Position numbers and translations under genes: made by a program. Under the pieces are notes generated by a model that was given only the letters and a program-made list of their open reading frames with translations, was not told where the DNA came from and did no database searches. This document shows, piece by piece, positions 8,869 through 63,442 of a stretch of DNA of 64,000 nt (its first letter is position 1; every line of letters starts with the position of its first letter). The stretch is from Parcubacteria group bacterium M10-OD1-1 (GTDB lineage Bacteria; Patescibacteriota; Minisyncoccia; Moranbacterales; UBA2206): NCBI GenBank assembly GCA_003056145.1, contig LSNL01000001.1, positions 73,351 to 137,350 of the forward strand, read 5' to 3'.

Positions 8869-8879
8869 AATTAATGCGA

Positions 8880-30699: not shown

Positions 30700-32268
30700 C
30701 TAAAGTCTTACAATAAAATTAGCTGGTAAAGGAGCGTGGGGATCTATAATTGCTGGGTTGAGAGATTTTAATAAATTTAATCGAGAGGTTGTTTTAGCTA
30801 AAGAAATTAAAGTTTGATTAGGATGAGAAAGATTTATTCTTATTCTTTGTCCAGCTTTAATGGAAGAATTTTTTAAATGATTTTCGGCTATTATTTTTTT
30901 GTAGGGTAGTTTAAATTTTTTTCCAATTGCAAAAAGAGAGTCACCATTTTTAATTAAATAATTAACTATCTTTTTTCCTTGAGGAGGAATTTTTTTCTCT
31001 ACAAACTTAAGGCGATTAGTAGTTTTTAGATTATCTAAATCACCACTATTGATAATTTTAAAAACAGCATTAAATTTTCCAGGATAATTCAGGTTTTCTT
31101 TTATTCCAGTAGGATTAACTAATTTATCATAAAGATAAAGTTTAGTAGCATGATTGTTTAGTGGGATTTTTAATTTTTGACCAATCAATATAGAAGATGA
31201 AGATAATTCGTTAGCTTCTTTTAAAATAGCAGAATTAGAAATTTTAAATCTTTTAGCGATTTTTTCTAAAGTATCTTTCGGAACAACCGTATAAGGAAAA
31301 AAATCGGTGGTTTGTAATTGCTCTTTGGTTTCATTAGCTGAATTTTCTAAAAATTTTATGAAACCAGGGTAGGTTCTTTCTTTTTTGTTTCTTACTTTTG
31401 AAAAATACTTCCAAATAAAAGCTCCATTATAACCACTAAGAGCTAAATCCCAATCAAAACACTGGTTGTATAAATATTTTAAATTTTTAGCAGCGGCTTC
31501 AGCGCTTCTGATAGGGTCGTAGCGTTCATCAATGGTATTACTGACTAATAATTGGCAGATTTTATTAGTGGCGGTATTTTTCATAAATTGATAAGGACCT
31601 CTAGCTCCAGTAGGTGAGTGAGCATTAATAGTAAAGTGAGATTCAGGAATAGCCAAGTAAGCGAATTTTTCTGGAACACCTTCTCGGTGAAAACATTTTT
31701 TAATTTCTCCAATCCAGGGTTGCATATTATGAAAACCTCTTTCTAGATCAGGTCTTAATCTTCCTTCTTTTCCGTAATATTTTAGCCATTTATGTTCAAT
31801 TTTTTCTTTGATTTTTTCAGGACTTAAGGTTATAGGCTGAGGATTATCAAAAGAAAAAATTTCTTTAAGTGAAGGGGAATTAGCTTTATTTTCTTGATAT
31901 AGTTCTTCTCGTAATTCTTCAAGTGATTCAGCTACTAAGCTTTCGTTATCTTGATGGATTCTGGTTTGTTCTGAAGTAGGATTTTCTTGGTTAGAACTGT
32001 TTTCATTTTCTTGGGATGAAAAAAAATCTAAAGTTTTTTCTGTTATCTCTGGGATCATTGCTCCAGTTAAAGCTAAGGCTCCAAGCTTAAGAAATTTTCT
32101 TCGACTGAGGGCTTTATCATGAGTGTTTTTTTCTGGAAATGTTTTTTTAAATCTCCCTTTTTTAATAATTTTTTGATCATTTAGTAAAGCTGAGCTTTCT
32201 AATGAATCAGGAGGAGGAAATTTTTCAAAATTCATTTTTATTAAAAAAATTAAATAAGTTAGTTTCAA
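30700..32268 (-). CDS. Lytic transglycosylase (SLT domain) with LysM-like repeats
   Basis: SLT catalytic region …PESHFTINAHSPTGARGPYQFMKNTA… plus two LysM-like segments (YTVVPKDTLEKIAKRF, YLIKNGDSLFAIGKKF). Start codon uncertain. Confidence 0.55.
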   Translation of the reverse strand: MKLTYLIFLIKMNFEKFPPPDSLESSALLNDQKIIKKGRFKKTFPEKNTHDKALSRRKFLKLGALALTGAMIPEITEKTLDFFSSQENENSSNQENPTSEQTRIHQDNESLVAESLEELREELYQENKANSPSLKEIFSFDNPQPITLSPEKIKEKIEHKWLKYYGKEGRLRPDLERGFHNMQPWIGEIKKCFHREGVPEKFAYLAIPESHFTINAHSPTGARGPYQFMKNTATNKICQLLVSNTIDERYDPIRSAEAAAKNLKYLYNQCFDWDLALSGYNGAFIWKYFSKVRNKKERTYPGFIKFLENSANETKEQLQTTDFFPYTVVPKDTLEKIAKRFKISNSAILKEANELSSSSILIGQKLKIPLNNHATKLYLYDKLVNPTGIKENLNYPGKFNAVFKIINSGDLDNLKTTNRLKFVEKKIPPQGKKIVNYLIKNGDSLFAIGKKFKLPYKKIIAENHLKNSSIKAGQRIRINLSHPNQTLISLAKTTSRLNLLKSLNPAIIDPHAPLPANFIVRL

Positions 32269-43542: not shown

Positions 43543-43744
43543 AGCGGATTGCAAGTAAGGAACTCAAAATATATATAATAACCTGTGGATAACTTATTAG
43601 TAGAGCTAAATTAGCCAGTCGATAAAGGATAAAAAAGTAAATTGTTTAAAACAATTGGAGAAAATTAAGGAAAAGTGACCAATTTTCTAAAAAAGTAATT
43701 AAATAGATATTACGCTTTATTTAAAGGATAATTTTAACAAGTGA

Positions 43745-43773
43745 TTGACTTTTGGTTATTTTCTTGCTATAAT
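43745..43773 (+). promoter_or_regulatory. Consensus sigma70 promoter driving a noncoding transcript
   Basis: TTGACT, 17-bp spacer, TATAAT. No ORF with an RBS for ~550 bp downstream. Confidence 0.6.
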
Positions 43774-43779
43774 AGAGTT

Positions 43780-44269
43780 AGTGAAAAGTAAAAGAACCTT
43801 AAAAATTATTGAAAATGTTACGGCAGAATAATTTTCAATCACAATTTCCCCCTATTTGTGGTTGAAAATTATTCTGCTGTCCAAGTGCTTTAGCCAACGC
43901 GCTAAAGTCGCTCCTATTCTAACTAGGAGACCCAAAATAAAAATAAAAAAACAATTCTTGCTTAAAAAGTGAGATTTGTAAAACTTTTTAAAACAAAAAT
44001 AAAAAATAAAAAGTCTGTTCTTTAAATTAAAGGTGAAAAATCACCAGAGGATGGTAGAAAATAAGACACGAAAGTTAGATAAGTGTCAAAGAGTCGTATA
44101 TAAAGTACGCGTGATTTACAACTATGTAAATGCCTTCACCCGGGCTATAATAGTTTTCGATTTACGTGTTAGTACGACAAACATCAGGGCGTTCCGCCAA
44201 TTTATTTCTATTGGGCGTCGAGCGCCCTGGTTTCAATATTATTTATAGACACCAGGCAGGTGTTTTTTT
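43780..44269 (+). ncRNA. Candidate structured ncRNA of unknown family (~480 nt, between promoter and terminator)
   Basis: Contains a 16-bp perfect inverted repeat hairpin (43823-43877), a gctttagc/gctaaag hairpin, and a GC-enriched 3' half with nested helices (cagggcg[cgccaa…ttgggcg]tcgagcgccctg). It ends at an intrinsic terminator at 44247-44269. Conserved RNase P and tmRNA motifs were not seen. Confidence 0.35.
44247..44269 (+). terminator. Intrinsic terminator
   Basis: agacacc-aggca-ggtgt followed by TTTTTTT. Confidence 0.5.
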
Positions 44270-44331
44270 GTTGCTTAATTTTTGAATAAGTTATATTTTA
44301 AATAAAAAAGAATAATTATTTATTAATCTTA

Positions 44332-47386: not shown

Positions 47387-48379
47387 ATGTCTTTTTTAAA
47401 GAAGAAAAATTTTTTTATTAGCGGTTTAGTGTTAATGGTTTTCTTTTTGATAACTTTTAAAGCATTCGCTTTTTTTTCTCAAAGTGAAACTATTTTGAGT
47501 TTTAATAATAGTTTGAAAAATATAACTATCAATGATAATGGACTTTTTTTTCAGGAAAAAACTAAGGCTAATTCAGTGGCAGAATTATTGCAAGAAAAAA
47601 ATATTATACTTACTCAATATGATAAAATTTTCCCCGCTCAAAATAGTCCACTTTATCCAGGAGAGTATATTGAAATAAAAAAGGCAGTTAGCATAAAAAT
47701 ATTAGTGGATAAAAAAGTAGATAGTTGTTATGTTACTGCTAAAACAGTTCGGCAAGCTTTAGAAGAACGAGGGATAGAATTAACACAATTAGATCAGGTG
47801 CAACCGAAACGAAGTTTTTTAATTCAGAATAAGATGAAGATAATTGTTACTCGGGTTAAAATTCAAGAAATAACGAAAAAAGAACCAGTTCAGTTTAAGA
47901 TAATTGTTAAAAAAAATTCTCAAATAGGTTGGCGAAAGAAAAAGATTAAAATTTTTGGAGAAAAAGGAAGTCAAAAAATCAAATACAGGATTACTTATAA
48001 AAATGGAAAAATAATTTCTCAGGTCGTACTAGAGAAAAAAATCATTAAAAAACCAATCTCACAGATTGAGCTTCAGGGAACTTATTTAAAATTAGGTAAA
48101 ATTAATAGCGGTCAAGGTTCTTGGTATAGACAAACAGCTAAATTGAAAAATAAATTTCCTTCAGTAGTGAATAATTTTGCGGCTAGCACAACTATTCCAA
48201 AAGGAGGCTATGCGAAAGTTACTAATATTAGCAATGGTAAATCAGTCATTGTTCAAATAAATGATTATGGACCCAAGGCTAGAGGACGCATAATAGATTT
48301 AGATAAAGTAGCTTTTCAAAAGATAGCTTCAGTCGGGAGGGGCGTGATAAATGTAAAAGTAAGAAGAATATTAAATTAA
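47387..48379 (+). CDS. Cell-wall-associated protein with C-terminal RlpA-like double-psi beta-barrel (3D) domain
   Basis: Signal/TM, DUF348/G5-like middle region, C-terminal GSWYRQTAK…TTIPKGGYAKVTNISNGKSVIVQINDYGP…RIIDL typical of RlpA/3D domains. Confidence 0.5.
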   Translation: MSFLKKKNFFISGLVLMVFFLITFKAFAFFSQSETILSFNNSLKNITINDNGLFFQEKTKANSVAELLQEKNIILTQYDKIFPAQNSPLYPGEYIEIKKAVSIKILVDKKVDSCYVTAKTVRQALEERGIELTQLDQVQPKRSFLIQNKMKIIVTRVKIQEITKKEPVQFKIIVKKNSQIGWRKKKIKIFGEKGSQKIKYRITYKNGKIISQVVLEKKIIKKPISQIELQGTYLKLGKINSGQGSWYRQTAKLKNKFPSVVNNFAASTTIPKGGYAKVTNISNGKSVIVQINDYGPKARGRIIDLDKVAFQKIASVGRGVINVKVRRILN

Positions 48380-48382
48380 AAA

Positions 48383-49183
48383 ATGAAATTAAAAAAATCT
48401 TTGGGGCAAAATTTTTTACAAGATCAGACTATTTTAAATAAAATAGTTAGTTCAGCTAGATTAGAAAAAAATGATTTAGTAATAGAAATCGGTCCTGGGG
48501 CAGGAGCTTTAACGGAAAAATTAGTTGCACAAGTTAAAAAAATATTAGCAATTGAAATTGATGAAAGACTGGTTGAATTATTAACTAAAAATTTTTTTAA
48601 TAATCCTAAAGTTAAAATTATTCAACAGGATATTTTACAAGGAAATTTAAATAAATTATTGCTTAATTTTACTAATTCTTCTATCCAAACAATTCAATAT
48701 AAAGTAGTAGCTAATATTCCTTATTATATTACCTCGCCAATTATTAGATTATTACTAGAAGCCGAAAATCCTCCTCAAGAAATAATTTTAATGGTTCAAA
48801 AAGAAGTTGCTCAAAGAATTTGTAGCCAAGCTGGTCAAATGAGTCTTTTATCGGTGGCGGTGCAATATTATGCTGAAGTGGAATTACTTTTTGAAGTAGC
48901 TAAAGAATCATTTCAGCCAATACCAAAGGTAGACAGTGCCGTAATTAGAATAATACCTAAGGAAAAAGAACTTTCTTCTGTTGAGCGTAAGGAATTTTTT
49001 AAAATTGTTAGAGCCGGATTTTGTGCTAAAAGAAAAACATTAATCAATAATCTAAGCAATAGTTTACATCTTGATAAAAATAAAATAGCTGAAAAATTTA
49101 AAAAGATTAATCTTAATTTTCAAGTTAGAGCGCAAGAGTTAAGCGTAGAAGATTGGGAAAAATTGAGAAAACTTTTTAATTAG
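48383..49183 (+). CDS. rsmA: 16S rRNA (adenine1518/1519-N6)-dimethyltransferase
   Basis: LGQNFLQD start motif, SAM-binding VIEIGPGAGALT and NIPYYITSPI. Confidence 0.85.
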   Translation: MKLKKSLGQNFLQDQTILNKIVSSARLEKNDLVIEIGPGAGALTEKLVAQVKKILAIEIDERLVELLTKNFFNNPKVKIIQQDILQGNLNKLLLNFTNSSIQTIQYKVVANIPYYITSPIIRLLLEAENPPQEIILMVQKEVAQRICSQAGQMSLLSVAVQYYAEVELLFEVAKESFQPIPKVDSAVIRIIPKEKELSSVERKEFFKIVRAGFCAKRKTLINNLSNSLHLDKNKIAEKFKKINLNFQVRAQELSVEDWEKLRKLFN

Positions 49184-50920: not shown

Positions 50921-51970
50921 TTGTGGTATAATTTTATTGCAATGAAAACTAAAAAAGTAAACTTATCAATTTTAATTTTAAGTAGCTTGATTATTTTGAG
51001 TTTTGCTTTTTTCGTGGTGGCGAAAGAGAACAATCAAACTAATAATAATATTTTTTTAGATTCTGATCAAGATGGATTGACTAATCAAGAAGAAAAATTA
51101 TATGGAACTGATCCTTATAATCCAGACACTGATGGTGATGGATATTCTGATGGAGCCGAAGTTAAAGCGGGTTATAATCCTTTAAAACCAGCTCCTGGAG
51201 ATAAGCTTCTAAATAATCAGAAAAAATGGGCTGAAAAAAATTTAGTTAAAAATAAGTCTGGTCAAAATAATTTAACTAGTGAAGTAGCTCAAAAAATTGC
51301 TAATCTTTCTAATCAATCTAAGGCTGGTAACCAAGAAGTTACTTTAGCACAAATTCAGAAAATAGTGGATAGCTCTTTAGCTATTAATGATAAGAAATCT
51401 ATTGATCTTCCAACAATTCCACTTTCAGAAATTAAAATTAAGAAACAAGACTATAAAAATCTTAGTTCAAGTAAGGCACAGAAAAAAAGAAAAGAAGATT
51501 TTACTAATTATGTAGCAGCGGTATTTTATATTTTAACGAGTAATTCTCCTCAACCAATAACTTCTTTTACTGATATTTCTTCTGTTATTAATCAAAGTGT
51601 CCAACAAATTATAATGGCTTTAAGTTCTGGTGATCAGAACAGTCTTAATAATATTAGTAAAAGTGGTCAAAAAATTCTTAGTCAATTAAAGGAAGTTGAG
51701 GTGCCAAAAGAAATGGTAAATACTCATATTAAAGCTTTAGAATATGCTACTTACTCAGAACAATTAAAGGGTTTAATTAAAAATAATTCTCAAGATCCAA
51801 TAATGGGGATAGCTAACTATGCTAAAATCGGTTCTTTTGTGAATAATTTAATTAGTTTTTCTGATGATATCCAAAATAAGTTTAAAAAATATAATATGGA
51901 CTATAGTGATATTCAAAATAAGATGAAGAAATATGGCGTTGACATTAAATATAATAAGACAAATAAATAA
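50921..51970 (+). CDS. Secreted protein with thrombospondin-type-3-like Ca-binding Asp repeats
   Basis: Signal/TM anchor, then DSDQDGLTNQEE…DPYNPDTDGDGYSDGAEV (DxDxDG repeats). Rest is Q/N/S-rich. Confidence 0.4.
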   Translation: MWYNFIAMKTKKVNLSILILSSLIILSFAFFVVAKENNQTNNNIFLDSDQDGLTNQEEKLYGTDPYNPDTDGDGYSDGAEVKAGYNPLKPAPGDKLLNNQKKWAEKNLVKNKSGQNNLTSEVAQKIANLSNQSKAGNQEVTLAQIQKIVDSSLAINDKKSIDLPTIPLSEIKIKKQDYKNLSSSKAQKKRKEDFTNYVAAVFYILTSNSPQPITSFTDISSVINQSVQQIIMALSSGDQNSLNNISKSGQKILSQLKEVEVPKEMVNTHIKALEYATYSEQLKGLIKNNSQDPIMGIANYAKIGSFVNNLISFSDDIQNKFKKYNMDYSDIQNKMKKYGVDIKYNKTNK

Positions 51971-51996
51971 TTTTATTGAGGAATTAACTTTTTAGT

Positions 51997-53034
51997 ATGC
52001 TAAGAAACAAAAACAATTTTTTCAAGAAAGCTATTCTAGTAGTTATTTTATTTTCTTTCTCGCTTTCTTTCTATCCACAAAAAGCTCAAGCAGCTCTTTG
52101 GCCAGCTATGGACCCGGGTATAAAAGTCGGTTTAGATAAAGTAATTGATTTTATTAAGGGTGCAATGTTAGGAATGCTTAAAAAACAAGCGGCCAAAACC
52201 TTAAATCAACAAGTAGATTCTTTAATGAGTGGAGGTAATGATTCGGCGGGTTTTATTACTGATTGGAAACAGTACTTGATTAACGAACCAAAAAATAAAA
52301 GTAAAAAATATATGAATGACTATTTAAGTCAAATGACTCAAGGGAGAGGTTCATCATCTAGCTATGTATCGGAAGGTTTCTCGCATAATAGTAGTTATGC
52401 AGGAGAGCTAACTAATAATGCTAGAAGGGTTATTGATAATTCTTCTAATTCGGCTCCACCAAAAGTGACTTATGAAGGCAATCCATCGCAAATGTTTGAA
52501 GCTAATAATTTTAAGACTATGGGAACTTATCTTTCTGGGGTTAATAATCCCTGGTCGTTTGATAATGCTGTCCAAGAAGAATACCAAAGAAAATTAAGAG
52601 AAGAAAGAATGGTTCAGGAGAATAAAGCGGTAGCTTATCAGGGATTTTTAGGTAAAGGAGATAAAAGTGGAACTATCACTAATCCGGGTTCTTTAATAAA
52701 AACTAATGTAGCTAATGTTCAAAATATTGGTAACGAGATAATTGCTTCAGCTACTCATCCAGCTGAAATAATTGGTTCTTTCGTTTCTTCTTTAATAACT
52801 AAAGCATTTAAACAAGGAGTGAAGAAAGTAGAGAATAAATCTCAGAGAAAAATGAATTCTAATTTACAAATGAATAAAATAATGGATCAAGTTATCAATA
52901 AAAATGGTCCAGCAGCTAGATTTTCTAATAATAACAGCTGGAATAACCCAGATACAACAAGTAATACTAACGCTTGGAAAAATCCAGATACAACAAGTAA
53001 TACTAACGCTTGGAAAAATCCAGATGCTAAATAG
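51997..53034 (+). CDS. Secreted hypothetical protein with C-terminal 12-aa tandem repeats
   Basis: Signal peptide (…SFYPQKAQA). C-terminus NPDTTSNTNAWK x2.3 encoded by a 36-bp tandem repeat. Confidence 0.4.
   Translation: MLRNKNNFFKKAILVVILFSFSLSFYPQKAQAALWPAMDPGIKVGLDKVIDFIKGAMLGMLKKQAAKTLNQQVDSLMSGGNDSAGFITDWKQYLINEPKNKSKKYMNDYLSQMTQGRGSSSSYVSEGFSHNSSYAGELTNNARRVIDNSSNSAPPKVTYEGNPSQMFEANNFKTMGTYLSGVNNPWSFDNAVQEEYQRKLREERMVQENKAVAYQGFLGKGDKSGTITNPGSLIKTNVANVQNIGNEIIASATHPAEIIGSFVSSLITKAFKQGVKKVENKSQRKMNSNLQMNKIMDQVINKNGPAARFSNNNSWNNPDTTSNTNAWKNPDTTSNTNAWKNPDAK
52948..53030. repeat. 36-bp tandem repeat x2.3 inside a CDS, plus adjacent 12-mer (aaattaaagacc)x2.5 at 53042-53076
   Basis: ccagatacaacaagtaatactaacgcttggaaaaat repeated with period 36. 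Confidence 0.85.
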
Positions 53035-53080
53035 TTAGGAAAAATTAAAGACCAAATTAAAGACCAAAATAAAGAGTTAA

Positions 53081-54877
53081 ATGAATAAAATAATCTATCA
53101 TAAAAATGTACAACGATTTTTAGCGATTTTTTTCGTGTCTATCTTGATATTTTCTTCTTCTAACAAAATATTTTCTTTTAAAGCTGATTTTATTCCTGTC
53201 GCTCACGCAGCAGCAGTAAATCAATCAGCCTCTCAAAGAAAGGCTAGTTTAAATAATTCTTGTAGTGCTTTGAATTGGACTTCTGGCAATGCTTTAAATT
53301 GTGCTCTATTAAAAATCTTATATTTAGATGGAAAAATTATTCAAGCTTCTGCTACTCTTTTTGAATGGGTTATTGAACCAAAGACGATGATGACTATAAT
53401 TGATAACCCAATTATTTATTCTACATGGGCTTTAGTAAGAGACACCTTGAATATTTTATTTATTTTAGTCTTGCTTTTTTCGGCTTTTGCTACGGTGTTT
53501 CAAGTGGATAAATATAGTTATAAAAAAATACTTTTAACTCTAGTCATTATGGCTCTTTTGGTTAATTTTAGTTTTCCGATTTCTAGATTTATAATTGATG
53601 TTGCTAATTCTATGATGTATTATTTAATCAATAATTTAGGGGGTGGGGCTGGATCTTTTGCTCAAATTGCGAATTCTGGAGGATTGCTTAATATTATCCA
53701 TCCAGCAGATATGCCAGATTTAACTAATCTAATTAGTGCTATCATATTTGGCTTTATCTTTGCTATTACTTTAATGATTATCGCTGTTCTTTTTTTAATT
53801 AGAAGTATAGCTTTGGCAATTTTGATTATTTTTTCTTCAGTAGCTTTTATTGGAGCAATTGCTCCTTTTTCGGCTTCTTACGCTGATAAATGGTGGGATA
53901 AGCTTTTTGAATATGCTTTTTTCGGACCAATCATGATTTTTATGATTTATGTTTCTGTGGAGTTTATGAATAAAATAAGCACTTCTGCTAATGGGACAAT
54001 GAAGGCGATCGCTGCTAATCAAAGCTTAGATTCAAGCTTTGTATCTTCTATTGCATTTTTTATGATTCCGTTAGTAATACTCTGGATTGGAATTGGTATG
54101 GCTCAATCATTTAATATTGCTGGAGCTAAAAAGGTTACCGATAAAGCTCATAAATATGCTAGAGTAGCCTTAAATGCTCCGTGGCAAGCAACAGGAATTC
54201 CTGGAGGATTTAAAAAAGCCAAAGACCATTATATTCGTAAAGGAGCTCCTGGATTTTTGGGTAAAATTCCTGGATTACGTGGAGATGAAAAAACTAAATC
54301 AACTGAAGCTTGGATAGCAGGAAAATTAGGTGTTACCGGTTCTCAGGAGCAAGACATTAAGAAGCGAGCGTCTGAAATGGATAAAAGTAACGAGTCCGTA
54401 GAAAGTTTAAGAGAGCAAGCTAGGAGTGGTAATATAGCGGCAATCTATCGATTGTCCGAAATGGGAATAATTGAAAAAGAAGAGTTTACGATTGCTATGA
54501 ATAAAACTAGAGATCAAAAAGTTAGAGAAATGCTTGAAAATACAACTAGAAAGAAAAGAGCTGATGTGGTGGTTGATTCCAAAATTCAACAAGCTGAGCA
54601 AAGAGCAGGGCATAATTTAACAGAAGCAGAAAGAATCAATATCGCTCAAAATGAGATTGGTAAGCTTTCTACTGATCAGTGGAAGAATCAAAATATGGAG
54701 AAATTACTCGGTTACGATAGGGAAAGTCAATCTTATTCAATAGATGCAAATACTATTGCTAGACGACAAGCAACTGAAAATTATTATCAAAACAGTAATG
54801 CACAACGACGGCAAACAATGGTTAGAGATATGAATGGAAACAATTATGCTGCTTCGTCAGGAGTGGGGATTATTTAA
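53081..54877 (+). CDS. VirB6/TrbL-like polytopic membrane protein (type IV secretion-like)
   Basis: Signal peptide, ~6 TM helices in the middle, hydrophilic C-terminal third. Architecture and placement upstream of VirB3/VirB4-like genes fit VirB6/TrbL. No strong sequence motif. Confidence 0.4.
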   Translation: MNKIIYHKNVQRFLAIFFVSILIFSSSNKIFSFKADFIPVAHAAAVNQSASQRKASLNNSCSALNWTSGNALNCALLKILYLDGKIIQASATLFEWVIEPKTMMTIIDNPIIYSTWALVRDTLNILFILVLLFSAFATVFQVDKYSYKKILLTLVIMALLVNFSFPISRFIIDVANSMMYYLINNLGGGAGSFAQIANSGGLLNIIHPADMPDLTNLISAIIFGFIFAITLMIIAVLFLIRSIALAILIIFSSVAFIGAIAPFSASYADKWWDKLFEYAFFGPIMIFMIYVSVEFMNKISTSANGTMKAIAANQSLDSSFVSSIAFFMIPLVILWIGIGMAQSFNIAGAKKVTDKAHKYARVALNAPWQATGIPGGFKKAKDHYIRKGAPGFLGKIPGLRGDEKTKSTEAWIAGKLGVTGSQEQDIKKRASEMDKSNESVESLREQARSGNIAAIYRLSEMGIIEKEEFTIAMNKTRDQKVREMLENTTRKKRADVVVDSKIQQAEQRAGHNLTEAERINIAQNEIGKLSTDQWKNQNMEKLLGYDRESQSYSIDANTIARRQATENYYQNSNAQRRQTMVRDMNGNNYAASSGVGII

Positions 54878-54894
54878 TTTTTAATTTTGTTAAA

Positions 54895-56427
54895 ATGAAA
54901 AAGATTAGTTTCACAAAATTAGACCAAGAAATACAAATTAAAAGGTGTACTATACCTCAACATGTTTCAGTTACAAAAAATCCTGATGATGAAAATTATA
55001 GCCAAATTGTAGAAAGACAGAATAAATTTTTGACGTTGACTATTCCGATAAGAAATAAATTATCAGCTCCTGAAACAGGAGAAACAATCCAAAGAATTGG
55101 TAAAACTTTTTCTTTAGATCTTTTACAAATAGCGGTTATTGCTAGAATGGTAAGAAGTTTCTATTTTGGTGAGATAAAATTAGAAGATTTTCCAAATTTA
55201 TTAGCTAAAGAATTCAAGATGGATCTTATCCAAGCTAAGAAAATTTCTCAAATAGTAATAAATAAAATAATTAATGACCAAACGCAAGAGGAAGAATACC
55301 AGTCTAGCTTAGAAAAAATTACTCTTCAAGAAGCACTAAAAAAATATCCTAAATTGGCAGATCAATTAATTACTAAAAATCATATTGAATTAGATAATTA
55401 TCCAGCACCAGTTCGTCCGTCGTTGAAAAATTGGTTAGCTGATTATACTTTCACGATAGGACATAATTCGCCAACAGCTATGGATAGAGGAATATATTTA
55501 TTTCAGAATAAGAATACTAAATCTTTATTGGCCAAAGAAAGACAAAAATTAGCTTACCTTTTTAAATCTTATGACGAGAAAGCATTTATTACCGTAGATA
55601 CTAATAATAATCAAATTGTTTTTCCTCAAAAGAATATTTTATCGAGAGGAGATAAAAAAGAAAATAATGAGAAAGCAGAAAGAGAAACGGGAGGAAAAGA
55701 AACAAAATGGTCAGTTAATTCTCAAGAAAAAATAAAAAATTATATTGAGCCGAAAGATATTTTTCAAACTGAAAAAAATAAAAAAATTATAGAAGGAGAA
55801 AAGAAAATTATTCAAAAAACCCCAGAAGAAGAATTGGGAGTAAAAGAAAATCAGCTAGCCAATAGTCCACTAGTGGCTAAGTTATTAGCTTCTGATCATT
55901 CAGACTCTACCTTGCCTAAGCCTAATTTTGCAATCAGTAAAAATGCAAAGCTAACTACTCAATCTTCAGTTGGTTCGTCTTTGCCAGTTAAAAAATCAAT
56001 GGATTCTTTTAATAAATCTCTTAATCTAAGTAAAAAAACTTCAGCTAAAATAGTCTCTCCTGAAAATAATTTAGAAAAAACTATTAATTTTAGTCAAAAA
56101 CCAAATTTAAAAACAAATAAAAATAATTTATCAATTCCAAAAAAACCAATCAATGATTTGCCGGATCAGCAAATTTCTAAAATTGAATTTACCACTCATC
56201 AGAAAATGCCTTTTGAAGAGAAAGATGAAAATTCAGTTGTTAAAAATATTTCTCCAGAGCCAGTAGTTAAAAAAACTCCGCAACCAATGAGAATAGCTCC
56301 TAGAAATTTTAAAAATCAATTTACAGAAAAACCACAATCAATAGAAGCTAAAAATAATAAAATAATCAATAATAATTCTCCTGTTTCAGTTAACCCTAAA
56401 AATATCGTTAATCTTAAAGAAAAATAA
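54895..56427 (+). CDS. Hypothetical low-complexity K/N/S-rich protein
   Basis: 510-aa ORF, structured N-terminal ~200 aa and disordered C-terminal half. Confidence 0.35.
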   Translation: MKKISFTKLDQEIQIKRCTIPQHVSVTKNPDDENYSQIVERQNKFLTLTIPIRNKLSAPETGETIQRIGKTFSLDLLQIAVIARMVRSFYFGEIKLEDFPNLLAKEFKMDLIQAKKISQIVINKIINDQTQEEEYQSSLEKITLQEALKKYPKLADQLITKNHIELDNYPAPVRPSLKNWLADYTFTIGHNSPTAMDRGIYLFQNKNTKSLLAKERQKLAYLFKSYDEKAFITVDTNNNQIVFPQKNILSRGDKKENNEKAERETGGKETKWSVNSQEKIKNYIEPKDIFQTEKNKKIIEGEKKIIQKTPEEELGVKENQLANSPLVAKLLASDHSDSTLPKPNFAISKNAKLTTQSSVGSSLPVKKSMDSFNKSLNLSKKTSAKIVSPENNLEKTINFSQKPNLKTNKNNLSIPKKPINDLPDQQISKIEFTTHQKMPFEEKDENSVVKNISPEPVVKKTPQPMRIAPRNFKNQFTEKPQSIEAKNNKIINNNSPVSVNPKNIVNLKEK

Positions 56428-56446
56428 ATAATAAAATTAAATTAGT

Positions 56447-56851
56447 ATGCAATTTAATGTCCCACAATTTATTAGTATAGAAGATAAGATAGTTGGTCCT
56501 TTTACGGCTAAGCAATTAGGTTGGTTGGCTATTGGTGGAATCATCTTCTTAATACTATGGAGTATGTTGGATACTTCAAGTCTGATTATAACTGGCTTAA
56601 TTGATGCGGTTATTTTTGGAGCCTTAGCTTTTTATAAACCTTATAGTCAGCCGTTGAATAAATTTTTAATGTCATCAGTTCATTTTTTCTTTCGTCCTAA
56701 AATATATGTTTGGAAGAGAAACTATGATAATATAAGAGCGGTACCAAGAAATCATCTAACAAATAAAAAACCAAAGCCAATAAAAAAGAAAGTTTTAAAG
56801 AGTGACAAGATAAAAGAAATTTCTAAAAGATTAGACGGTATTAGAGAATAA
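56447..56851 (+). CDS. Small two-TM protein, VirB3/PrgI-like
   Basis: 134 aa with two TM helices immediately upstream of the VirB4-like ORFs, as for VirB3/PrgI in T4SS loci. Confidence 0.35.
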   Translation: MQFNVPQFISIEDKIVGPFTAKQLGWLAIGGIIFLILWSMLDTSSLIITGLIDAVIFGALAFYKPYSQPLNKFLMSSVHFFFRPKIYVWKRNYDNIRAVPRNHLTNKKPKPIKKKVLKSDKIKEISKRLDGIRE

Positions 56852-56973
56852 ACTAAAAAAAATAAATTAAATTTCAAATAGACTGAGAAACTTCAAAAAA
56901 GTTTTTGAATAGAGGTAACGTTGACTAAACAAAAATTGAAATTTAAGGAACTAAAAACTAAAAATAAATAGGT

Positions 56974-57663
56974 ATGGAAATATTACATTCAGATAAGCTA
57001 ACTAAAAAAACAGCGACTTCTCCGACACAAAAATATCTAGATGTAGCAGAGGTTAAGGAAGACATCGTAGTTTTAAAAAATGGTTCTTTGAGAGCTGTTT
57101 TAGCAGTTTCGGCTATTAATTTTGATCTTAAATCTACTGAAGAGCAAGAAGCTATTATTAACCAATATCAAAATTTTCTCAACTCTATTGATTTCCCAGT
57201 ACAAATTATCATTAGTTCTAGAAAATTAAATATGCAAAGTTATTTAGATTTTTTGAGTACTAAGGAAAGAAGACAAGATAATGAATTATTGAGATTACAA
57301 ATTACGGAATACAAAAGCTTTATTGATCAACTAGTAAAGGATTCTAATATAATGGAAAAAAATTTTTATATCGTTATTCCTTTTTCTCCAATGGAAAATA
57401 AGGAGAAAGGCTTTATTAGTAATTTATTTAATACTTTTAACTCAAGAAAAAATATTTTAGAAAAAAGAGAAAATTTTGAAACTTATAAAAGCCAATTATA
57501 CCAGAGAGTGGATCATATTATTTCGGCGTTAGCAGGTATCGGTTTGAGAATAATTCCGCTTAAAACGGAAGAATTAATTGAGCTTTTATTTAATTCTTAT
57601 AATCCAGAACTTTACAGAGCGACTACTCTTAAAGATGTAAGTAAATTAGAACTGATGAAATGA
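56974..57663 (+). CDS. VirB4-like N-terminal domain ORF (possibly the 5' part of a split virB4)
   Basis: 229 aa, ends with TGA 4 nt before the ATG of the VirB4 ATPase ORF in another frame. Combined length ~836 aa equals a typical VirB4. Confidence 0.4.
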   Translation: MEILHSDKLTKKTATSPTQKYLDVAEVKEDIVVLKNGSLRAVLAVSAINFDLKSTEEQEAIINQYQNFLNSIDFPVQIIISSRKLNMQSYLDFLSTKERRQDNELLRLQITEYKSFIDQLVKDSNIMEKNFYIVIPFSPMENKEKGFISNLFNTFNSRKNILEKRENFETYKSQLYQRVDHIISALAGIGLRIIPLKTEELIELLFNSYNPELYRATTLKDVSKLELMK

Positions 57664-57667
57664 AATT

Positions 57668-59491
57668 ATGTTAAATATATTTAAAAAAAATCAAAATCAA
57701 AAAAAATCTCAACCAGTTGACGAAGTTTTAGAGAGTGAAAGATACTATCAAGAAGGAGTGTCTAAGTTAAATGATTTAATTGCTCCAGCTGCGATAAAAA
57801 TCAATTCTCGCAATATTAGAGTAGGAGAAACGTTAGTACAAACAATTTTTGTAATTGCTTATCCTAGATTTCTACATAGTAATTGGTTCTCTCCAATTAT
57901 TAATATTGATATGCCTATTGATATTTCAATGTTTATCCATCCAGTAGATACTTATGACATTTTAAAGACTCTTAAGAAGAATGCTACTAGAGTGGAGTCA
58001 CAAATCCACATAGAACAACAAAAAGGAATGATTAATGATCCAGCTTTGGAAACAGCAGTACAAGATATTGATGAATTGAGAAGTAATCTTCAGCAAGGAA
58101 CCGAAAAGTTTTTCCGTTTTGGTTTATATATTACTGTTTATGGTGAAAATGAAAAAGATTTAAATGAAGCTACTCATTCTATAGAAGCTATTTTAGAAGC
58201 TCAATTAGTGTATGTTAAACCGGCTATTTTTAAATCCGAACAGGGTTTTAATTCTACTTTACCACTCGCTAACGATGAATTAGATATTGGGACTAGTATG
58301 AATAGTTCTCCTCTTTCTACTACTTTTCCTTTTGTTTCCTCTACTCTTTCTACTAATAAAGGTATTCTTTATGGTATTAACCGACATAATAATAGTTTAG
58401 TGATTTTCGATCGTTTTGAGATGGAGAATGCTAATATGGTAGTTTTTGCTAAATCAGGAGCTGGAAAAAGTTATACTGTTAAATTAGAAATTTTAAGGTC
58501 GCTAATGTTGGGAACTAATGTAGTAATTATTGATCCAGAAAATGAATACAAACATCTTTGTGAGACAGTTGGAGGAACTTTTATTAAAATATCGCTTAAC
58601 TCAAAAAATCATTTAAACCCTTTTGATTTACCAAAAATTAAAGATGATGAAGATCCAGAAGATGTTTTAAGAAATAATATCGCTAGTTTGCTGGGATTAT
58701 TACATAGTATGCTAGGAAATATTACTCCAGAAGAAGATTCTATTTTAGATAGAGCGGTGAGAGAAACTTACGCTATTCGGGATATAACCGCTCAAACTGA
58801 TTTTAACTCTATTTCTAGAGAAGCTTATCCGACGATGTCAGATTTATATCAGGTTTTGCAAAGTATGGAAGGAGGAGAGGATTTATCTATTCGGCTAGAA
58901 AAATATACGGAAGGGGTTTTTGCTGGTTTTTTAAATAACACAACTAATGTTAAAATTGATAATCAAATGGTAGTTTTTAATATTCGGGATATGGGAGAAG
59001 AGTTGCGTCCTATTGCAATGTACATTGTGATGCAATTTATTTGGAATGAGATGAGAACTAATTTAAAAAGAAGATTGGTGTTAGTAGATGAGGCGTGGGT
59101 GATGATGAAATATGATGACGCAGCTTCTTTTATGTTTGGAATTGCGAAACGATGTCGTAAATATTATACTGGATTAACGACAATTACTCAGGATGTAGGA
59201 GATTTTCTGTCTTCTCGTTACGGGAAAGCGATTGTAACGAACTCTTCTATTCAATTATTATTAAAACAATCCACCGCTGCGATTGATATGGTTAGTGAAA
59301 CATTTTATTTAACTGATCAAGAAAGATTTTTATTGTTAGAAAGTAATATCGGAGAAGGGATTTTTTTTGCCGGTACTAAACATGTGGCTATTAAAGTAGT
59401 TGCTTCCTATTCAGAAGACCAAATAATTACTACTGATCCAGCTCAGTTAATGAAAATTGATCAGGCTAAAAAAGAATTTAGTGAAGAATAA
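57668..59491 (+). CDS. virB4: Type IV secretion ATPase VirB4/TraC/TrsE family (ATPase domain)
   Basis: Walker A VVFAKSGAGKSYTVK, VIIDPENEY, Walker B RRLVLVDEAWVMM (DEAW) and the C-terminal VirB4 sensor region. Confidence 0.75.
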   Translation: MLNIFKKNQNQKKSQPVDEVLESERYYQEGVSKLNDLIAPAAIKINSRNIRVGETLVQTIFVIAYPRFLHSNWFSPIINIDMPIDISMFIHPVDTYDILKTLKKNATRVESQIHIEQQKGMINDPALETAVQDIDELRSNLQQGTEKFFRFGLYITVYGENEKDLNEATHSIEAILEAQLVYVKPAIFKSEQGFNSTLPLANDELDIGTSMNSSPLSTTFPFVSSTLSTNKGILYGINRHNNSLVIFDRFEMENANMVVFAKSGAGKSYTVKLEILRSLMLGTNVVIIDPENEYKHLCETVGGTFIKISLNSKNHLNPFDLPKIKDDEDPEDVLRNNIASLLGLLHSMLGNITPEEDSILDRAVRETYAIRDITAQTDFNSISREAYPTMSDLYQVLQSMEGGEDLSIRLEKYTEGVFAGFLNNTTNVKIDNQMVVFNIRDMGEELRPIAMYIVMQFIWNEMRTNLKRRLVLVDEAWVMMKYDDAASFMFGIAKRCRKYYTGLTTITQDVGDFLSSRYGKAIVTNSSIQLLLKQSTAAIDMVSETFYLTDQERFLLLESNIGEGIFFAGTKHVAIKVVASYSEDQIITTDPAQLMKIDQAKKEFSEE

Positions 59492-59500
59492 AATATAAAG

Positions 59501-60016
59501 ATGAATGAGCACCAACATAAAAAAAGATTAGAACAAGCTAGGCAAACAGGGAGAGCAAATAATTTAACAAAAAAAAATAGTTCTACTCAAAAAACTATTA
59601 AAGAATCTAAAGAGGTAATTAAAAATATTTCTAACCCAGTTAGTTTTTTCTCCCTATTTTTTCAAATGAGTATTTTTACTGACTGGATGTATGGAGTAGC
59701 TCTTTTAGCAGCGGTGTTAAAAGATATATTAGATTTATTAGAAGTAACGGGGATTTGGTATATAATAGTAATTGTTTTAACCTTTTGTGTTTCTATCTTT
59801 ATTGCATTGATGATGTTGCTAGGTAATTCGGTTAATGGAGTTGGTAAAGGACAACGAAAAATGATAAAAAGCTGGTTGGTATTATTGGCTGGAACAAGTG
59901 CAGAATTAATTTTTGGAATAGATCTACTGCCGATTGAAACTCTGACTGTGATAATTATTTATTTAATGCTCCTCTCGGCTAGAAAAACCCAACAGCAAAT
60001 TTTAAACGCTAAATAG
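59501..60016 (+). CDS. Hypothetical membrane protein (possible pilin/VirB2-like)
   Basis: 171 aa, charged N-terminus then 3 hydrophobic helices. Lies in the T4SS-like cluster. Weak. Confidence 0.3.
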   Translation: MNEHQHKKRLEQARQTGRANNLTKKNSSTQKTIKESKEVIKNISNPVSFFSLFFQMSIFTDWMYGVALLAAVLKDILDLLEVTGIWYIIVIVLTFCVSIFIALMMLLGNSVNGVGKGQRKMIKSWLVLLAGTSAELIFGIDLLPIETLTVIIIYLMLLSARKTQQQILNAK

Positions 60017-60085
60017 ATAAAGAACTGAAAATAAAATAAAATAAATTTAATGGTTAGAATTTTTTTAGAAAACTTAAGTTAAAAA

Positions 60086-60784
60086 ATGACTTATTATAGC
60101 TTTAAAAATAAAAAAATAAGAACGAAAAAAAGCCTTCTTTTAAACTATAAGGAATTTTTTCTAACATCTGCTATAATAATAGTGTGTTTAGTTCTTTCTA
60201 TTGTTTTTCCGACGACTGGTTTTTTTCAAGATTTAACGAGAGGATTTTTTTTCCTATTTTTAGCACCAATTTTGTATCTAAAATTTATTCTTAAGAAAAA
60301 AATTAAAACCTCAGGATTAAATTTGAAAAATAAAAAAGTGGGAATTATTTGGGGCTCAGCGATGCTAGTAATTTCATTGGTTAGTATTTTTACATTAATT
60401 AAATTAACTAATTTTTCTGCTAGTTATAGAATATCAGCTATTATAATAAATAATTTCTGGTTTTTTACTCTCTATATGTTTGTTTTAGCAAATTTTATTT
60501 TGTTTATTCAGGAATATTTTTTTCGCGGTTTTATTTTAAATACTTTTCGAGAGGAAACAGGAAAATGGTCAGTCGTTATTCAGGCGTTAATTTATTTAAT
60601 TGTGGTTATTATTCAGAAAGGATTTAATGCTAATCTTTGGCAGATGGTACCGATGTTGATTCTGGCTCTTACCGGCGGGATCACAGCTTATAAAAGTAAG
60701 TCTATGATTTATTCTTATATCAGTGGATTGTTATTCTTCATTATTTTAAACTCTTATTTAATTCATTTAATAAAAATAAAATAA
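60086..60784 (+). CDS. CPBP/Abi-family intramembrane protease-like protein
   Basis: Polytopic protein with QEYFFRGFILN (EExxxR-like motif 1 context) and a later HxxxN/H region. Moderate. Confidence 0.45.
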   Translation: MTYYSFKNKKIRTKKSLLLNYKEFFLTSAIIIVCLVLSIVFPTTGFFQDLTRGFFFLFLAPILYLKFILKKKIKTSGLNLKNKKVGIIWGSAMLVISLVSIFTLIKLTNFSASYRISAIIINNFWFFTLYMFVLANFILFIQEYFFRGFILNTFREETGKWSVVIQALIYLIVVIIQKGFNANLWQMVPMLILALTGGITAYKSKSMIYSYISGLLFFIILNSYLIHLIKIK

Positions 60785-60832
60785 ATTAAAACACTTTAAT
60801 AAAAAAATATTTTAATAAAAATAATTAAGAAT

Positions 60833-63442
60833 ATGAAAAAAAAGATAAAAAAAATTAATAGGACGGAGAGAATACTCATGGGAGTAATTAAAAGTTTTTT
60901 TATTTTCTTAATCTCTCTTTTTATGTTTAGTCCTTCAGTGCAAGCTTGGGATTTGACTAGCTTTGGTGGAGGAGATGTCAACGGAGTAATGGATTCAGCT
61001 ATGAATAACTTAGGAGTTAATAAGACAGAATTAAAATATGGTATTCAATCTTTCAATGTTTCTCGGAAAAAGAAAACACCACCTCAAGTAACACTGACTT
61101 TTAATCCTCGCAATCCATCTCCTGGACAAAAAATTACTGCGGTAGCTACAACGACTTACTTTCTTAATGAATCAAAAAATTTATACTTTACTTGGTTTTT
61201 AAAAACAAAAAATTGTCCTCGGACAAGTACTCCTGACTCTATAGAAAAAAAGCAATGTGATTTAAATAAAGATGGACGGGTAGATATTGCAGATTACAAA
61301 ATTAAAGCTACGAGAATTATTGTTAATAATGGTTTTGATTGGGAAGATGCTAATTATTCTAGAGATAATAGTAATGATAGCTATAAAGCTAATTTTGGAG
61401 GAGATGATCAAGGAGGAAAAACTTCTTATTGTTATATTCACGATACGAAAGGTGGCGATGAGTATCGGATTAAATGTGCTCACCTTTTTCCTCATGCGCC
61501 AGGAGAAGTAACAGGTGATGGTTCTTTTGGAATTAAAGAAGAAAAATTTTGGCATACTGATCCTAACAGTCCTGATACAGCTGGAACGGGAAATGTAGAC
61601 GAAGCTAATGTGGCTGGACTTGGAATAAAACAGTTTACTTGGAATTATGAAACTGGTGATGAAGTAGGGGTAGTAGTAGAAGGTGTTTCTATTGAATCTA
61701 CTCAAACAGCTGATGCTTCTTACCGAACTATGTGGGCAATGCCTAAAAGTATGTGCGATGTAAGTCCAATCATTAAAAATTTTCCTAAAAAAACTACTAA
61801 TACTATATCTCAATCAACTAATTCTCCTTCGGAAGGAGAAACAACTACAGTAACTCAGACGACTAATCAAACTATCCAGAGTAGAGCAGCTAATATTGCT
61901 AGTATAGAGACTGTGGTTACAACTACAACGACAGTAACCAATTCATTGACTGGTAATGTTATTTCTCAAAGTTCAACTTCAACCACACCTACTTATTCTG
62001 TTTCTAATATTTCAGATGATATATCAGTTAATAATATAAAAAGTGCTTCTGATTTAAATAACTGCTTATATGCTAATTTAGTCAGTCCAACAGCAGTAGG
62101 TAAAAATGGGAGAAAAATTAATGTTTCACTTTCTTATTCTCCAGAAACTCCAATGAATGATCCAAAAGTTAATTCTAACTCGGGAGATACGGTTATTGTG
62201 CAAGCTTCACTTGACGACATAAGCGATACCAGTTATCTAAATTATTTTTGGCAAGTTTATCAAAGCGATGAAGCTAATCCAGATAGTTGGGGAAAACCTT
62301 TGTTGAAATCTGCTTTGCCTGATTCTACTCAGACAACAGGTCTAGGTTTAGATTCTTTTGAGTTTAAACTAAATTTTCCTCATCCGAAAAAATATTTTCG
62401 GGTTAAGTTAACAGTAACTGAGCCAACATCAGGAGGAACTAGCAGAGAAGGACATACTGATATAATTATTCCTATTGCTTCAGTGAATAATAGAATGCAA
62501 GTTTTTTCGGCTAATGTTTCTAAATCATTGCAATTAAATATGCAAGGAACAGAACAATGTACTGCTGGTATAAACAAAGTTGTTTGTTCAGTTGCTAAGA
62601 ATGAAATCATTGGAATTAAAGTTGATGCTAATAATTTATCTAATTATGCTTGGTCAATTGATGGAAAACCTTTTACTTATCAAACTTGTTTTTTCCAGGG
62701 TTGTAATTTAAATCAAGAAACTAATGTAGCTTATTTCCCCGTTGTAAAAGAAGTAGGAGAAGAATTTAATATTTCTTTGGTAGCTACTAATCAAGTAAGT
62801 GGACAGAAAATAAATTTAATCCGAACATTTAAAGTGGCTGATCCCCAAATAAAAATTCTTTCTGCTGATACTAAAACTTGTAAACCAGTTTTACTTGGTC
62901 ACTACATTGATTTTAACGGTAAACAATGGCCAGATTATAGTCAAATAAATTTTTGGGCGTTATCCAGCAGTCCAATTAAATTAATGGCGTTAACCTCTGG
63001 AGCTTATATTCCACCAACTGATTATAACTGGGTTGTGGATGGTAATTCTATCAATCAAAATAATGTTGGAAAATATGGATTTAAATTAGATAAAAATGGT
63101 GTTTTAACTTTACCACCTAAACCAAGTAATCAAAGTTATAATGTAGGGGTAAGCGTTTTATATACGCAAAATAATTTAACGAAAAAAGCCTTAAATAAAT
63201 ATTGGGGAGTTTCTTATGATCAGTTTTATGAAAAGCCAATTGCAGATAATATTAATGTTATAATGCAAAAAATTAAACCAAAAGCAGTTGCTCAATCTTC
63301 CAGTAAAAAAATTATGGCGACTCTTTTTTCGGCAGTTCCAGCTTACATAGCTTTTATTCTAAGAATAATTTTGACCATATTTTTAATGTTAGTTACGGCC
63401 TCTTTAGTATTCTCATTATCTTCAAAAATAAAAAATGAATAA
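60833..63442 (+). CDS. Large (869 aa) surface protein with signal peptide and C-terminal TM anchor
   Basis: N-terminal signal (…SPSVQAWD), T/S/N-rich extracellular body, C-terminal hydrophobic anchor (VPAYIAFILRIILTIFLMLVTASLVF). Confidence 0.45.
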   Translation: MKKKIKKINRTERILMGVIKSFFIFLISLFMFSPSVQAWDLTSFGGGDVNGVMDSAMNNLGVNKTELKYGIQSFNVSRKKKTPPQVTLTFNPRNPSPGQKITAVATTTYFLNESKNLYFTWFLKTKNCPRTSTPDSIEKKQCDLNKDGRVDIADYKIKATRIIVNNGFDWEDANYSRDNSNDSYKANFGGDDQGGKTSYCYIHDTKGGDEYRIKCAHLFPHAPGEVTGDGSFGIKEEKFWHTDPNSPDTAGTGNVDEANVAGLGIKQFTWNYETGDEVGVVVEGVSIESTQTADASYRTMWAMPKSMCDVSPIIKNFPKKTTNTISQSTNSPSEGETTTVTQTTNQTIQSRAANIASIETVVTTTTTVTNSLTGNVISQSSTSTTPTYSVSNISDDISVNNIKSASDLNNCLYANLVSPTAVGKNGRKINVSLSYSPETPMNDPKVNSNSGDTVIVQASLDDISDTSYLNYFWQVYQSDEANPDSWGKPLLKSALPDSTQTTGLGLDSFEFKLNFPHPKKYFRVKLTVTEPTSGGTSREGHTDIIIPIASVNNRMQVFSANVSKSLQLNMQGTEQCTAGINKVVCSVAKNEIIGIKVDANNLSNYAWSIDGKPFTYQTCFFQGCNLNQETNVAYFPVVKEVGEEFNISLVATNQVSGQKINLIRTFKVADPQIKILSADTKTCKPVLLGHYIDFNGKQWPDYSQINFWALSSSPIKLMALTSGAYIPPTDYNWVVDGNSINQNNVGKYGFKLDKNGVLTLPPKPSNQSYNVGVSVLYTQNNLTKKALNKYWGVSYDQFYEKPIADNINVIMQKIKPKAVAQSSSKKIMATLFSAVPAYIAFILRIILTIFLMLVTASLVFSLSSKIKNE

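Follow-up and report, generated by a model that had tools for sequence, protein, structure and literature searches.

Homologues of TrsD, which are remotely similar to the N-terminus of VirB4, are the most abundant component of type IV secretion systems (T4SSs) in Patescibacteria (Quinonero-Coronel et al. 2025, PMC12102498). The survey lists 2,272 TrsD homologues, 1,664 of which are associated with virB4, with the Gracilibacteria as the exception; homologues of PrgI/VirB3 and VirB6 accompany TrsD, relaxases are almost absent and KsgA is commonly found near virB4 (PMC12102498). In Southlakia epibionticum the TrsD homologue is essential (PMC12102498), as is the T4SS itself, which has no recognisable coupling or relaxase proteins (Wang et al. 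2023, PMC10633639). TrsD does not appear in the main text of Guglielmini et al. 2014 (PMC4027160), and the homology between TrsD and VirB4 is thus cited here from PMC12102498 only. Here, we describe a T4SS module in a stretch of 64,000 nucleotides (nt) from Parcubacteria group bacterium M10-OD1-1 (GCA_003056145.1, contig LSNL01000001.1, positions 73,351-137,350, forward strand; hereafter the window), in which VirB4 is encoded by two adjacent open reading frames (ORFs).

With high confidence, the module is a chromosomal T4SS of the type found in Patescibacteria, or candidate phyla radiation (CPR), related to the monoderm (mating-pair formation class MPF-FATA) conjugation machinery, and its VirB4 is made from two real genes. 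The host lineage is a Moranbacteria/Paceibacteria-type bacterium. A two-gene VirB4 is the norm across Patescibacteria and has been published as such; what is added here is evidence on the nature of the N-terminal module. The two polypeptides are complementary, both are long conserved, and their genes lie in an operon-like cluster together with VirB3-like and VirB6-like partners. An initial annotation of the window, made from its letters and ORF translations, had recognised a T4SS-like module with VirB4 in two adjacent ORFs, and the six ORFs that it named are all found where it placed them:

53081-54877, plus strand: VirB6/TrbL-like polytopic membrane protein of 598 amino acids (aa), assigned on a weak TrbL match and on its fold
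54895-56427, plus strand: conserved 510-aa protein between the VirB6-like and VirB3-like genes, no family match, about 35 relatives at 31-57% identity
56447-56851, plus strand: PrgI/VirB3-like small membrane protein of 134 aa (Pfam PrgI, E 1.4e-10)
56974-57663, plus strand: TrsD-like or 'TraC-like' (PF26593) protein, the VirB4 N-terminal ~200 residues as a separate 229-aa polypeptide, assigned on profiles, fold and homologues
57668-59491, plus strand: VirB4-family ATPase of 607 aa, minus the first ~200 residues, assigned with NCBIfam, Pfam and the PDB
59501-60016, plus strand: 171-aa membrane protein with about four transmembrane helices, no family match, relatives at 28-51% identity

The two VirB4 genes meet at positions 57661-57670. 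The first protein ends in ELMK, encoded by GAA CTG ATG AAA, at a TGA stop codon (57661-57663) that is followed by the spacer AATT and the ATG of the second gene (57668); the separation by TGA plus 4 nt, with the 607-aa ORF in the +1 frame relative to the 229-aa ORF, can be read directly at 57661-57668, as described initially. The summed length of 229 + 607 = 836 aa is likewise that of an intact VirB4. Upstream of its ATG, the frame of the 607-aa ORF is shut by TGA TGA (57653-57658), TAG and TAA; these four stops leave 57659-57661 as the only place where a single event could join the two frames. As had been stated, TGA acts as a normal stop in the window: it terminates six of the 48 long ORFs, well-identified genes included, the sole tRNA-Trp has the anticodon CCA, and the genetic code is the standard bacterial one. 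No Shine-Dalgarno-like motif and no RNA structure (fold z-score -0.23) are found at the junction, and a promoter and terminator scan of the module performed no better than on shuffled sequence. Given the 4-nt gap and the lack of a ribosome-binding motif, translation of the 607-aa protein is most likely coupled to termination of the 229-aa protein (termination-reinitiation).

The initial annotation had allowed for the possibility that 56974-57663 is an unrelated gene without similarity to VirB4 N-terminal domains. Its product does have such similarity. In NCBIfam, the 229-aa protein matches four VirB4 models in their N-terminal parts, among them VirB4_plasma (positions 93-267 of 894, E 1.4e-11), the CD1110 VirB4 family (10-121 of 752) and TIGR00929 (18-167 of 792). 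Its size falls within the ~200-250 aa of stand-alone VirB4 N-terminal proteins, and its gene lies directly upstream of a shortened virB4. A precomputed Pfam match to PF26593 ('TraC-like') exists for the identical protein and for a 99% identical homologue; a local Pfam scan of the 229-aa protein gave no match and did not reproduce it. When an AlphaFold2 model of the protein, built on a 98-sequence alignment (predicted local distance difference test score (pLDDT) 86, predicted template-modelling score (pTM) 0.76), was compared with the folds in the PDB, the top 14 matches were all chains of TrwK/VirB4 from the R388 T4SS, at probability 1.0 and with query TM-scores of up to 0.52; the next hit had E 0.14. 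Searches of PDB sequences with the 229-aa protein, alone or as a 98-sequence profile, returned nothing, and the link to TrwK comes from the fold comparison only.

The 607-aa protein supplies the remainder of VirB4, namely the latter half of the N-terminal domain and, C-terminal to it, the P-loop domain with its Walker A (GAGKS, residues ~264-268) and Walker B (LVLVDE, residues ~470-475) motifs, and it scores above curated thresholds for the VirB4/TraC/CagE family. The initial VirB4 ATPase call is solid: the match to NCBIfam conju_CD1110 (E 1e-113, 381 bits vs a cutoff of 325) covers positions 185-734 of 752, and those to VirB4_plasma and TIGR00929 cover positions 274-893 of 894 and 249-723, respectively. 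In Pfam, the protein matches P-loop_TraG (E 5e-31, 108 bits vs a cutoff of 25.8), AAA_10, DUF87 and the C-terminal ends of TraC_F_IV and CagE_TrbE_VirB. Residues 226-588 match PDB 4ag5, a VirB4 C-terminal domain, at E 3e-52, and TrwK residues 291-735 align to residues 117-555. A complete N-terminal domain, as in a VirB4 of ~800 aa in total, is not contained in this polypeptide, which starts at about position 185-274 of the VirB4 models.

An 881-aa protein from Clostridium baratii pNPD11_1, obtained by tblastn of plasmids, served as a fused VirB4 reference. Residues 30-210 of the 229-aa protein align to its residues 42-198 (E 1e-10) and residues 100-566 of the 607-aa protein to its residues 357-858 (E 1e-39), while a direct comparison of the two window proteins revealed no mutual similarity. 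The colinear, non-overlapping alignment and the absence of mutual similarity identify them as complementary pieces, not paralogues; the question whether the ORFs form contiguous parts of a full-length VirB4 is thereby answered in the affirmative. Because the profile coordinates are complementary, both proteins are colinear with the fused homologue and the small protein has a TrwK fold, TrsD-like proteins are best read as the detached N-terminal module of VirB4 (hereafter the N-module).

The initial annotation had named four possible origins of the arrangement, of which the comparative data support the genuine two-gene arrangement and refute a programmed frameshift, a recent pseudogenisation and a sequencing error. 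A search of 5.8 billion proteins returned 1247 homologues of the 229-aa protein; the best 120 of these (220-244 aa, 70-100% identity) are all from Moranbacteria, Parcubacteria or Patescibacteria metagenome-assembled genomes (MAGs), and all are without the ATPase. An exhaustive HMMER scan of 1.84 billion cluster representatives (50% identity) gave 2365 hits, of which 320 fall below 1e-30; the best 150 of all 2365 measure 132-443 aa and none (0/150) carries an ATPase, the surplus length of the longer family members consisting of disordered tails rich in P, A, T and Q. Among 46 species-representative genomes the N-module gene is present with its own stop (TAA, TAG or TGA), and in 40 of the 46 loci it is followed by a virB4 gene for 596-664 aa with its own ATG. 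The ATPase is the most conserved protein of the module (57-85% identity to relatives), followed by the N-module (50-74%), and the loci with an ATPase in this range are nearly all from Patescibacteria MAGs. That the summed length equals that of an intact VirB4, and that fused forms exist in Clostridia, is what would be expected if a frameshift mutation had recently broken an intact virB4. However, the same split, which the initial annotation had proposed to look for in related genomes, is common to 40 species-level loci with both ORFs full-length throughout, the best 150 cluster representatives of the N-module family stand alone, and the published homologue is essential in S. epibionticum (PMC12102498). 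Recent pseudogenisation therefore retains practically no probability.

The spacers between the N-module gene and virB4 in the 40 loci measure -1 (a TAATG overlap), 1, 4, 10, 16, 20, 22, 25, 36, 80-140 and up to 245 nt, all three relative frames occur, and the downstream ORF always has its own ATG at a homologous position (MLN/MFN/MFD...). Varied spacers, all three frames, and individual starts and stops are a pattern that neither a conserved frameshift site nor a recent lesion or an assembly artefact can generate. Taken alone, the junction could be read as the site of a programmed +1 ribosomal frameshift at AAA-UGA (57658-57663), akin to that of prfB and yielding a single full-length VirB4: the ORFs are 4 nt apart with a +1 offset, and an A-site stop in a slippery-looking, A-rich stretch is a classic +1 context. 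However, a prfB-type mechanism goes along with a conserved shift site and frame and no independent downstream start, whereas here spacer, frame and stop vary and the ATG is kept. Many spacers in relatives contain in-frame stops and long hairpin inserts, the frames of the window could be joined only in the 3-nt stretch delimited above, the junction has no stimulatory structure, and the stop of a sister strain is TAA. We consider programmed frameshifting extremely unlikely.

The sister strain, GCA_003056095.1, is 99% identical and has the same layout, with TAA (L050:3688-3690) in place of TGA (57661-57663); this stop-to-stop substitution keeps termination at the same codon. In addition, an independent Logan assembly from a different sequencing run (SRR32234002) contains an identical 101-nt junction. 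These two observations, together with the four stops that prevent any single indel outside 57659-57661 from fusing the ORFs, leave an indel introduced at 57655-57670 by sequencing or assembly with a negligible chance of being correct, even if the AT-rich surroundings, the A-runs downstream and the metagenomic origin of the genome are the kind of setting in which such errors might be expected.

The long spacers in relatives contain near-perfect long hairpins, most of the ten inserts that were folded being stable at z -4 to -11.6. Inserts of 80-245 nt occur in loci L003-L007, L010, L013, L014, L016, L017, L024-L027, L031, L034, L038 and L046 (for example L004:6691-6782). One family of inserts consists of ACGAA/TTCGT-repeat palindromes and is also present in other gaps between genes of the cluster; the window's own module has no palindromic hairpin inserts. 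They look like small palindromic elements, of the repetitive extragenic palindrome (REP) or miniature inverted-repeat transposable element (MITE) kind, or like processing or terminator hairpins, and could set the expression ratio of the two genes. Since the junction tolerates palindromic inserts, the ATPase gene must be translated on its own.

Some points count against the main reading. In the more distant lineages L043-L045 (37-41% identity) the N-module is an orphan, with no VirB4 gene in the 1-6 kb downstream that the loci cover, and the small protein may thus have a life of its own. The match to NF041427 (TrsD/TraD; E 2.3e-8, positions 24-150 of 201) reaches 34.1 bits vs a curated cutoff of 200, which makes the 229-aa protein a distant relative of the narrow staphylococcal TrsD subfamily that lies outside it. 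Moreover, that the 229-aa and 607-aa polypeptides associate physically is something we infer. Alternatively, the small protein could be an independent accessory or adaptor subunit derived from a VirB4 N-domain, with its own stoichiometry, partners and regulation, next to a VirB4 that is naturally short. The orphans of L043-L045, which adjoin TSP3-repeat surface proteins, point in this direction, as do the uncoupling of TrsD from virB4 in Gracilibacteria (PMC12102498), the long disordered tails of some family members, and the intergenic hairpin inserts of many relatives, which could uncouple expression. Against it stand strictly complementary profile coordinates and the colinearity of both proteins with fused VirB4, the adjacency of the genes in 40 of 46 loci and a fold that matches the VirB4 chain itself; an independent subunit is improbable, if clearly less so than any frameshift or lesion, and the detached N-terminal module of VirB4 is the preferred reading. 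The orphan N-module genes lie at L043:2526-3215, L044:5645-6373 and L045:2121-2807 (also in L041 and L042), one contig being labelled Peregrinibacteria; those of L044 and L045 adjoin a divergently transcribed TSP3-repeat protein of the kind that opens the window's module.

In the R388 structure, the N-terminal domain of VirB4 ties VirB4 to VirB3 and the inner-membrane complex. By analogy with this structure and from general knowledge of T4SSs, the 229-aa protein would dock non-covalently on the 607-aa ATPase and on the PrgI/VirB3-like and VirB6-like membrane proteins, and docking would restore the membrane-proximal N-terminal domain, through which the VirB4 hexamer is held on the inner-membrane platform. 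It is a speculative and rather doubtful idea that the split is functionally exploited rather than neutral: a separate N-domain could be produced at a level of its own, be exchanged, or act as a checkpoint of assembly by bringing the ATPase to the PrgI/VirB6 membrane platform. In some CPR lineages (L043-L045) the N-module is uncoupled from virB4 in the genome and paired with TSP3-repeat surface proteins, a hint of a second role.

A Pfam survey of the window took in the 48 ORFs that are 120 aa or longer, with a threshold of E <= 1e-4 that was relaxed to E <= 0.1 within the module. The search for VirD4, relaxase and pilin genes suggested by the initial annotation turned up none: no relaxase, VirD4/TcpA or pilin was detected among these ORFs, and the relaxase and type IV coupling protein (T4CP) that mark a conjugative T4SS locus are thus absent from the 64-kb window. 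Nothing convincing as a VirB2-like pilin was seen among the small ORFs, which were inspected by eye only, without a hidden Markov model scan. Because no relaxase or coupling protein is found in the window, and in view of the published work, the machine probably serves host interaction, or the transfer of protein or other cargo, in an epibiotic lifestyle rather than conjugation.

The module extends beyond 53081-60016, the range of the initial annotation. It occupies 50921-63442 and comprises ten tightly packed genes on one strand, 4-122 nt apart. By tblastn of the window proteins, this cluster is syntenic in about 35 relatives. The additional genes, and KsgA nearby, are:

48383-49183: KsgA, near the module
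50921-51970, plus strand: secreted TSP3 Ca-binding-repeat protein, the first gene of the module (Pfam TSP3_bac, E 1.9e-15)
51997-53034, plus strand: conserved 345-aa protein, signal or anchor sequence at the N-terminus, without a match in Pfam or NCBIfam, relatives at 25-46% identity
60086-60784, plus strand: CPBP/CAAX (Rce1-like) intramembrane protease (Pfam Rce1-like, E 6.8e-7), syntenic in relatives
60833-63442, plus strand: secreted 869-aa protein, signal peptide at the N-terminus and transmembrane anchor at the C-terminus, the last gene of the module

The partners of VirB4 differ in how readily they are recognised. The VirB3-like call of the initial annotation is well founded: the 134-aa protein, encoded 122 nt upstream of the N-module gene, reaches 42 bits against the Pfam PrgI family (cutoff 27), has a further match to TcpE (E 3e-3) and is 45-69% identical to its relatives. 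The VirB6-like call is probably right as well, with weaker support from sequence. In the 598-aa protein, residues 90-345 contain about six to seven transmembrane helices, and the C-terminal ~250 aa form an extended helical domain. The protein matches Pfam TrbL at E 0.062 (positions 26-213 of 215, 13.5 bits vs a cutoff of 25.9), and TrbL is the only family matched by its orthologues (three of 36, best E 1.1e-4), the best orthologue reaching 25.3 bits against the same cutoff; the orthologue P0273 matches TrbL at 1.5e-5 and TrbL_4 at 1.4e-4. Roughly half of 120 VirB6-like homologues carry precomputed PF04610 or PF19590 annotations, the latter of which was not reproduced by the local Pfam scan, and a profile search of PDB sequences returned only noise. 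When its AlphaFold2 model (pLDDT 85) was compared with the PDB by Foldseek, the top five matches were all TrwI/VirB6 of R388, with probabilities of 0.96-1.0 and target TM-scores of 0.42-0.51 but E-values of 0.12-0.38. The assignment as VirB6-like is thus weak by sequence and backed by a predicted fold.

At the borders of the module, the TSP3-repeat gene probably has its true start at the ATG at 50942 (MKTKKVNL...), and its product is syntenic in about 30 relatives at 35-52% identity. The protease matches NCBIfam CPBP families at E 2e-5 and 4e-4, with weak matches to MrtS-type sorting proteases (E 4e-4). The 869-aa protein has no significant family in Pfam or NCBIfam and is 34-58% identical to its relatives. 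The protease (60086-60784) and the 869-aa protein (60833-63442) form a conserved pair that might represent a candidate system for C-terminal sorting or processing of a T4SS-attached surface protein.

The window as a whole is about 30% G+C and 84% coding, and the other 50 kb are ordinary chromosome, with genes for L19, GyrA, S1, FtsH, UvrD/PcrA, PNPase, KsgA, tRNAs and a Xer-type recombinase. Three genes of the cell-wall hydrolase type are present, with LysM and CHAP (27104-28321), SLT and LysM (30700-32268), and G5 and DPBB domains (47387-48379); the last, lytic-transglycosylase-like, is located 2.5 kb upstream of the T4SS module and could be a candidate for a VirB1-like role. A nearly perfect hairpin with a 25-bp stem (43820-43880, z -7.8) sits in a gap of 789 nt (43543-44331) that lacks both ORFs of 120 aa or more and any Rfam family, its Rfam matches being chance matches to microRNA precursors only. 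A second large gap (8869-10035) contains two tRNAs and nothing else. A switch in gene strand and a cluster of parS-like sites (see below) prompted a search for a replication origin near 9-10 kb; DnaA boxes are not clustered there, GC skew tracks the gene strand, and none is claimed.

Three paralogues of Wzy_C (O-antigen-ligase-like) membrane proteins are encoded at 381-1655, 1662-2858 and 10036-12066, which is unusual for a small CPR genome. The third, an intact ORF of 676 aa on the plus strand, bears all ten copies of the 14-bp palindrome GTTCCACGTGGAAC, which lie within 1.3 kb (10540-11816); nine are exact and the tenth deviates at one position, against a chance expectation of none, and the rest of the 64 kb is free of the palindrome. 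Most copies have the full 16-bp form TGTTCCACGTGGAACA, a published ParB-binding parS centromere sequence (PMC3597684, PMC5450999, PMC7022226). The ORF reads through the palindrome in two frames, giving VPRGT and FHVEH/Q, and part of the array falls in a duplicated hydrophilic insert of ~70 aa. The 18-mer ATGTTCCACGTGGAACAT occurs widely in metagenomes, usually as a single copy, and is absent from the 51 related loci examined. Judged from its letters, the cluster at 10540-11816 resembles a chromosomal parS array of unusual density that lies within coding sequence.

For genome annotation, it follows that the junction is not to be marked as a frameshift in, or a disruption of, virB4, and that pipelines expecting a VirB4 of ~800 aa should accept a TraC-like/TrsD-like protein plus an ATPase of ~600 aa as one functional unit. 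The literature gains a small clarification: the adjacent VirB4 lacks exactly the region that is present in the TrsD-like protein, both proteins are colinear with fused VirB4, and the small protein has a TrwK N-terminal fold. As the T4SS of Patescibacteria is essential for epibiotic growth in the one genetically tractable species, a correct assignment of its subunits helps structural and genetic work.

The known systems closest to that of the window include the Patescibacteria-clade T4SSs (PMC12102498; S. epibionticum SEML1_0006-0019, PMC10633639). They share the chromosomal location, the TrsD homologue directly upstream of virB4, PrgI/VirB3-like and VirB6-like genes alongside, the lack of a relaxase or T4CP nearby and the proximity of KsgA; a chromosomal VirB4 together with TrsD-like, VirB3/PrgI-like and VirB6-like genes and no adjacent relaxase or T4CP, which is the gene content of this clade, is what the window contains. 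Unlike in these systems, no array of VirB2-like pilins and no VirB1-like hydrolase is recognised inside the module, which instead has the TSP3-repeat protein, the CPBP protease and the large anchored surface protein. The orphan N-module genes of L043-L045 match the published Gracilibacteria exception, in which TrsD is not associated with virB4 (PMC12102498). The staphylococcal TrsD-TrsE (TraD-TraE) pair of pGO1/pSK41 resembles the window in that a VirB4-N homologue of ~200 aa is encoded just upstream of a shortened VirB4 in a monoderm T4SS, but the staphylococcal pair is carried on plasmids and belongs to a conjugative system that has a relaxase and a coupling protein, and its relationship to the window protein is distant.

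Beyond Patescibacteria, the same split is found on the megaplasmid of Pontibacillus sp. ALD_SL1 (NZ_CP062975.1), where a 274-aa protein, the best plasmid match to the 229-aa protein (31% identity, E 5e-23), precedes a 621-aa 'CD1110 family' ATPase. The gene order is that of the window, with a large protein at the VirB6-like position, a small VirB3-like protein, the N-domain protein and the ATPase. In BLASTP against the proteins of this locus, the PrgI-like protein of the window matches the small protein preceding the split VirB4 at E 4e-9; the VirB6-like and 171-aa proteins have no similarity to them, the comparison for the 171-aa protein including the Mbov_0395 pilin-like proteins. The Pontibacillus locus differs in that the two genes overlap by 11 nt, in its Mbov_0395-type pilin-like genes and a downstream peptidoglycan endopeptidase, and in its host, which belongs to the Bacillota. 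Finally, the 881-aa VirB4 of C. baratii and TrwK/VirB4 of R388 (PDB 7o41, 8rtb) are single chains, whereas in the window the first ~200 residues are a separate protein; the fused clostridial gene is nonetheless preceded by a PrgI-family gene, just as the two-gene VirB4 is in the window.

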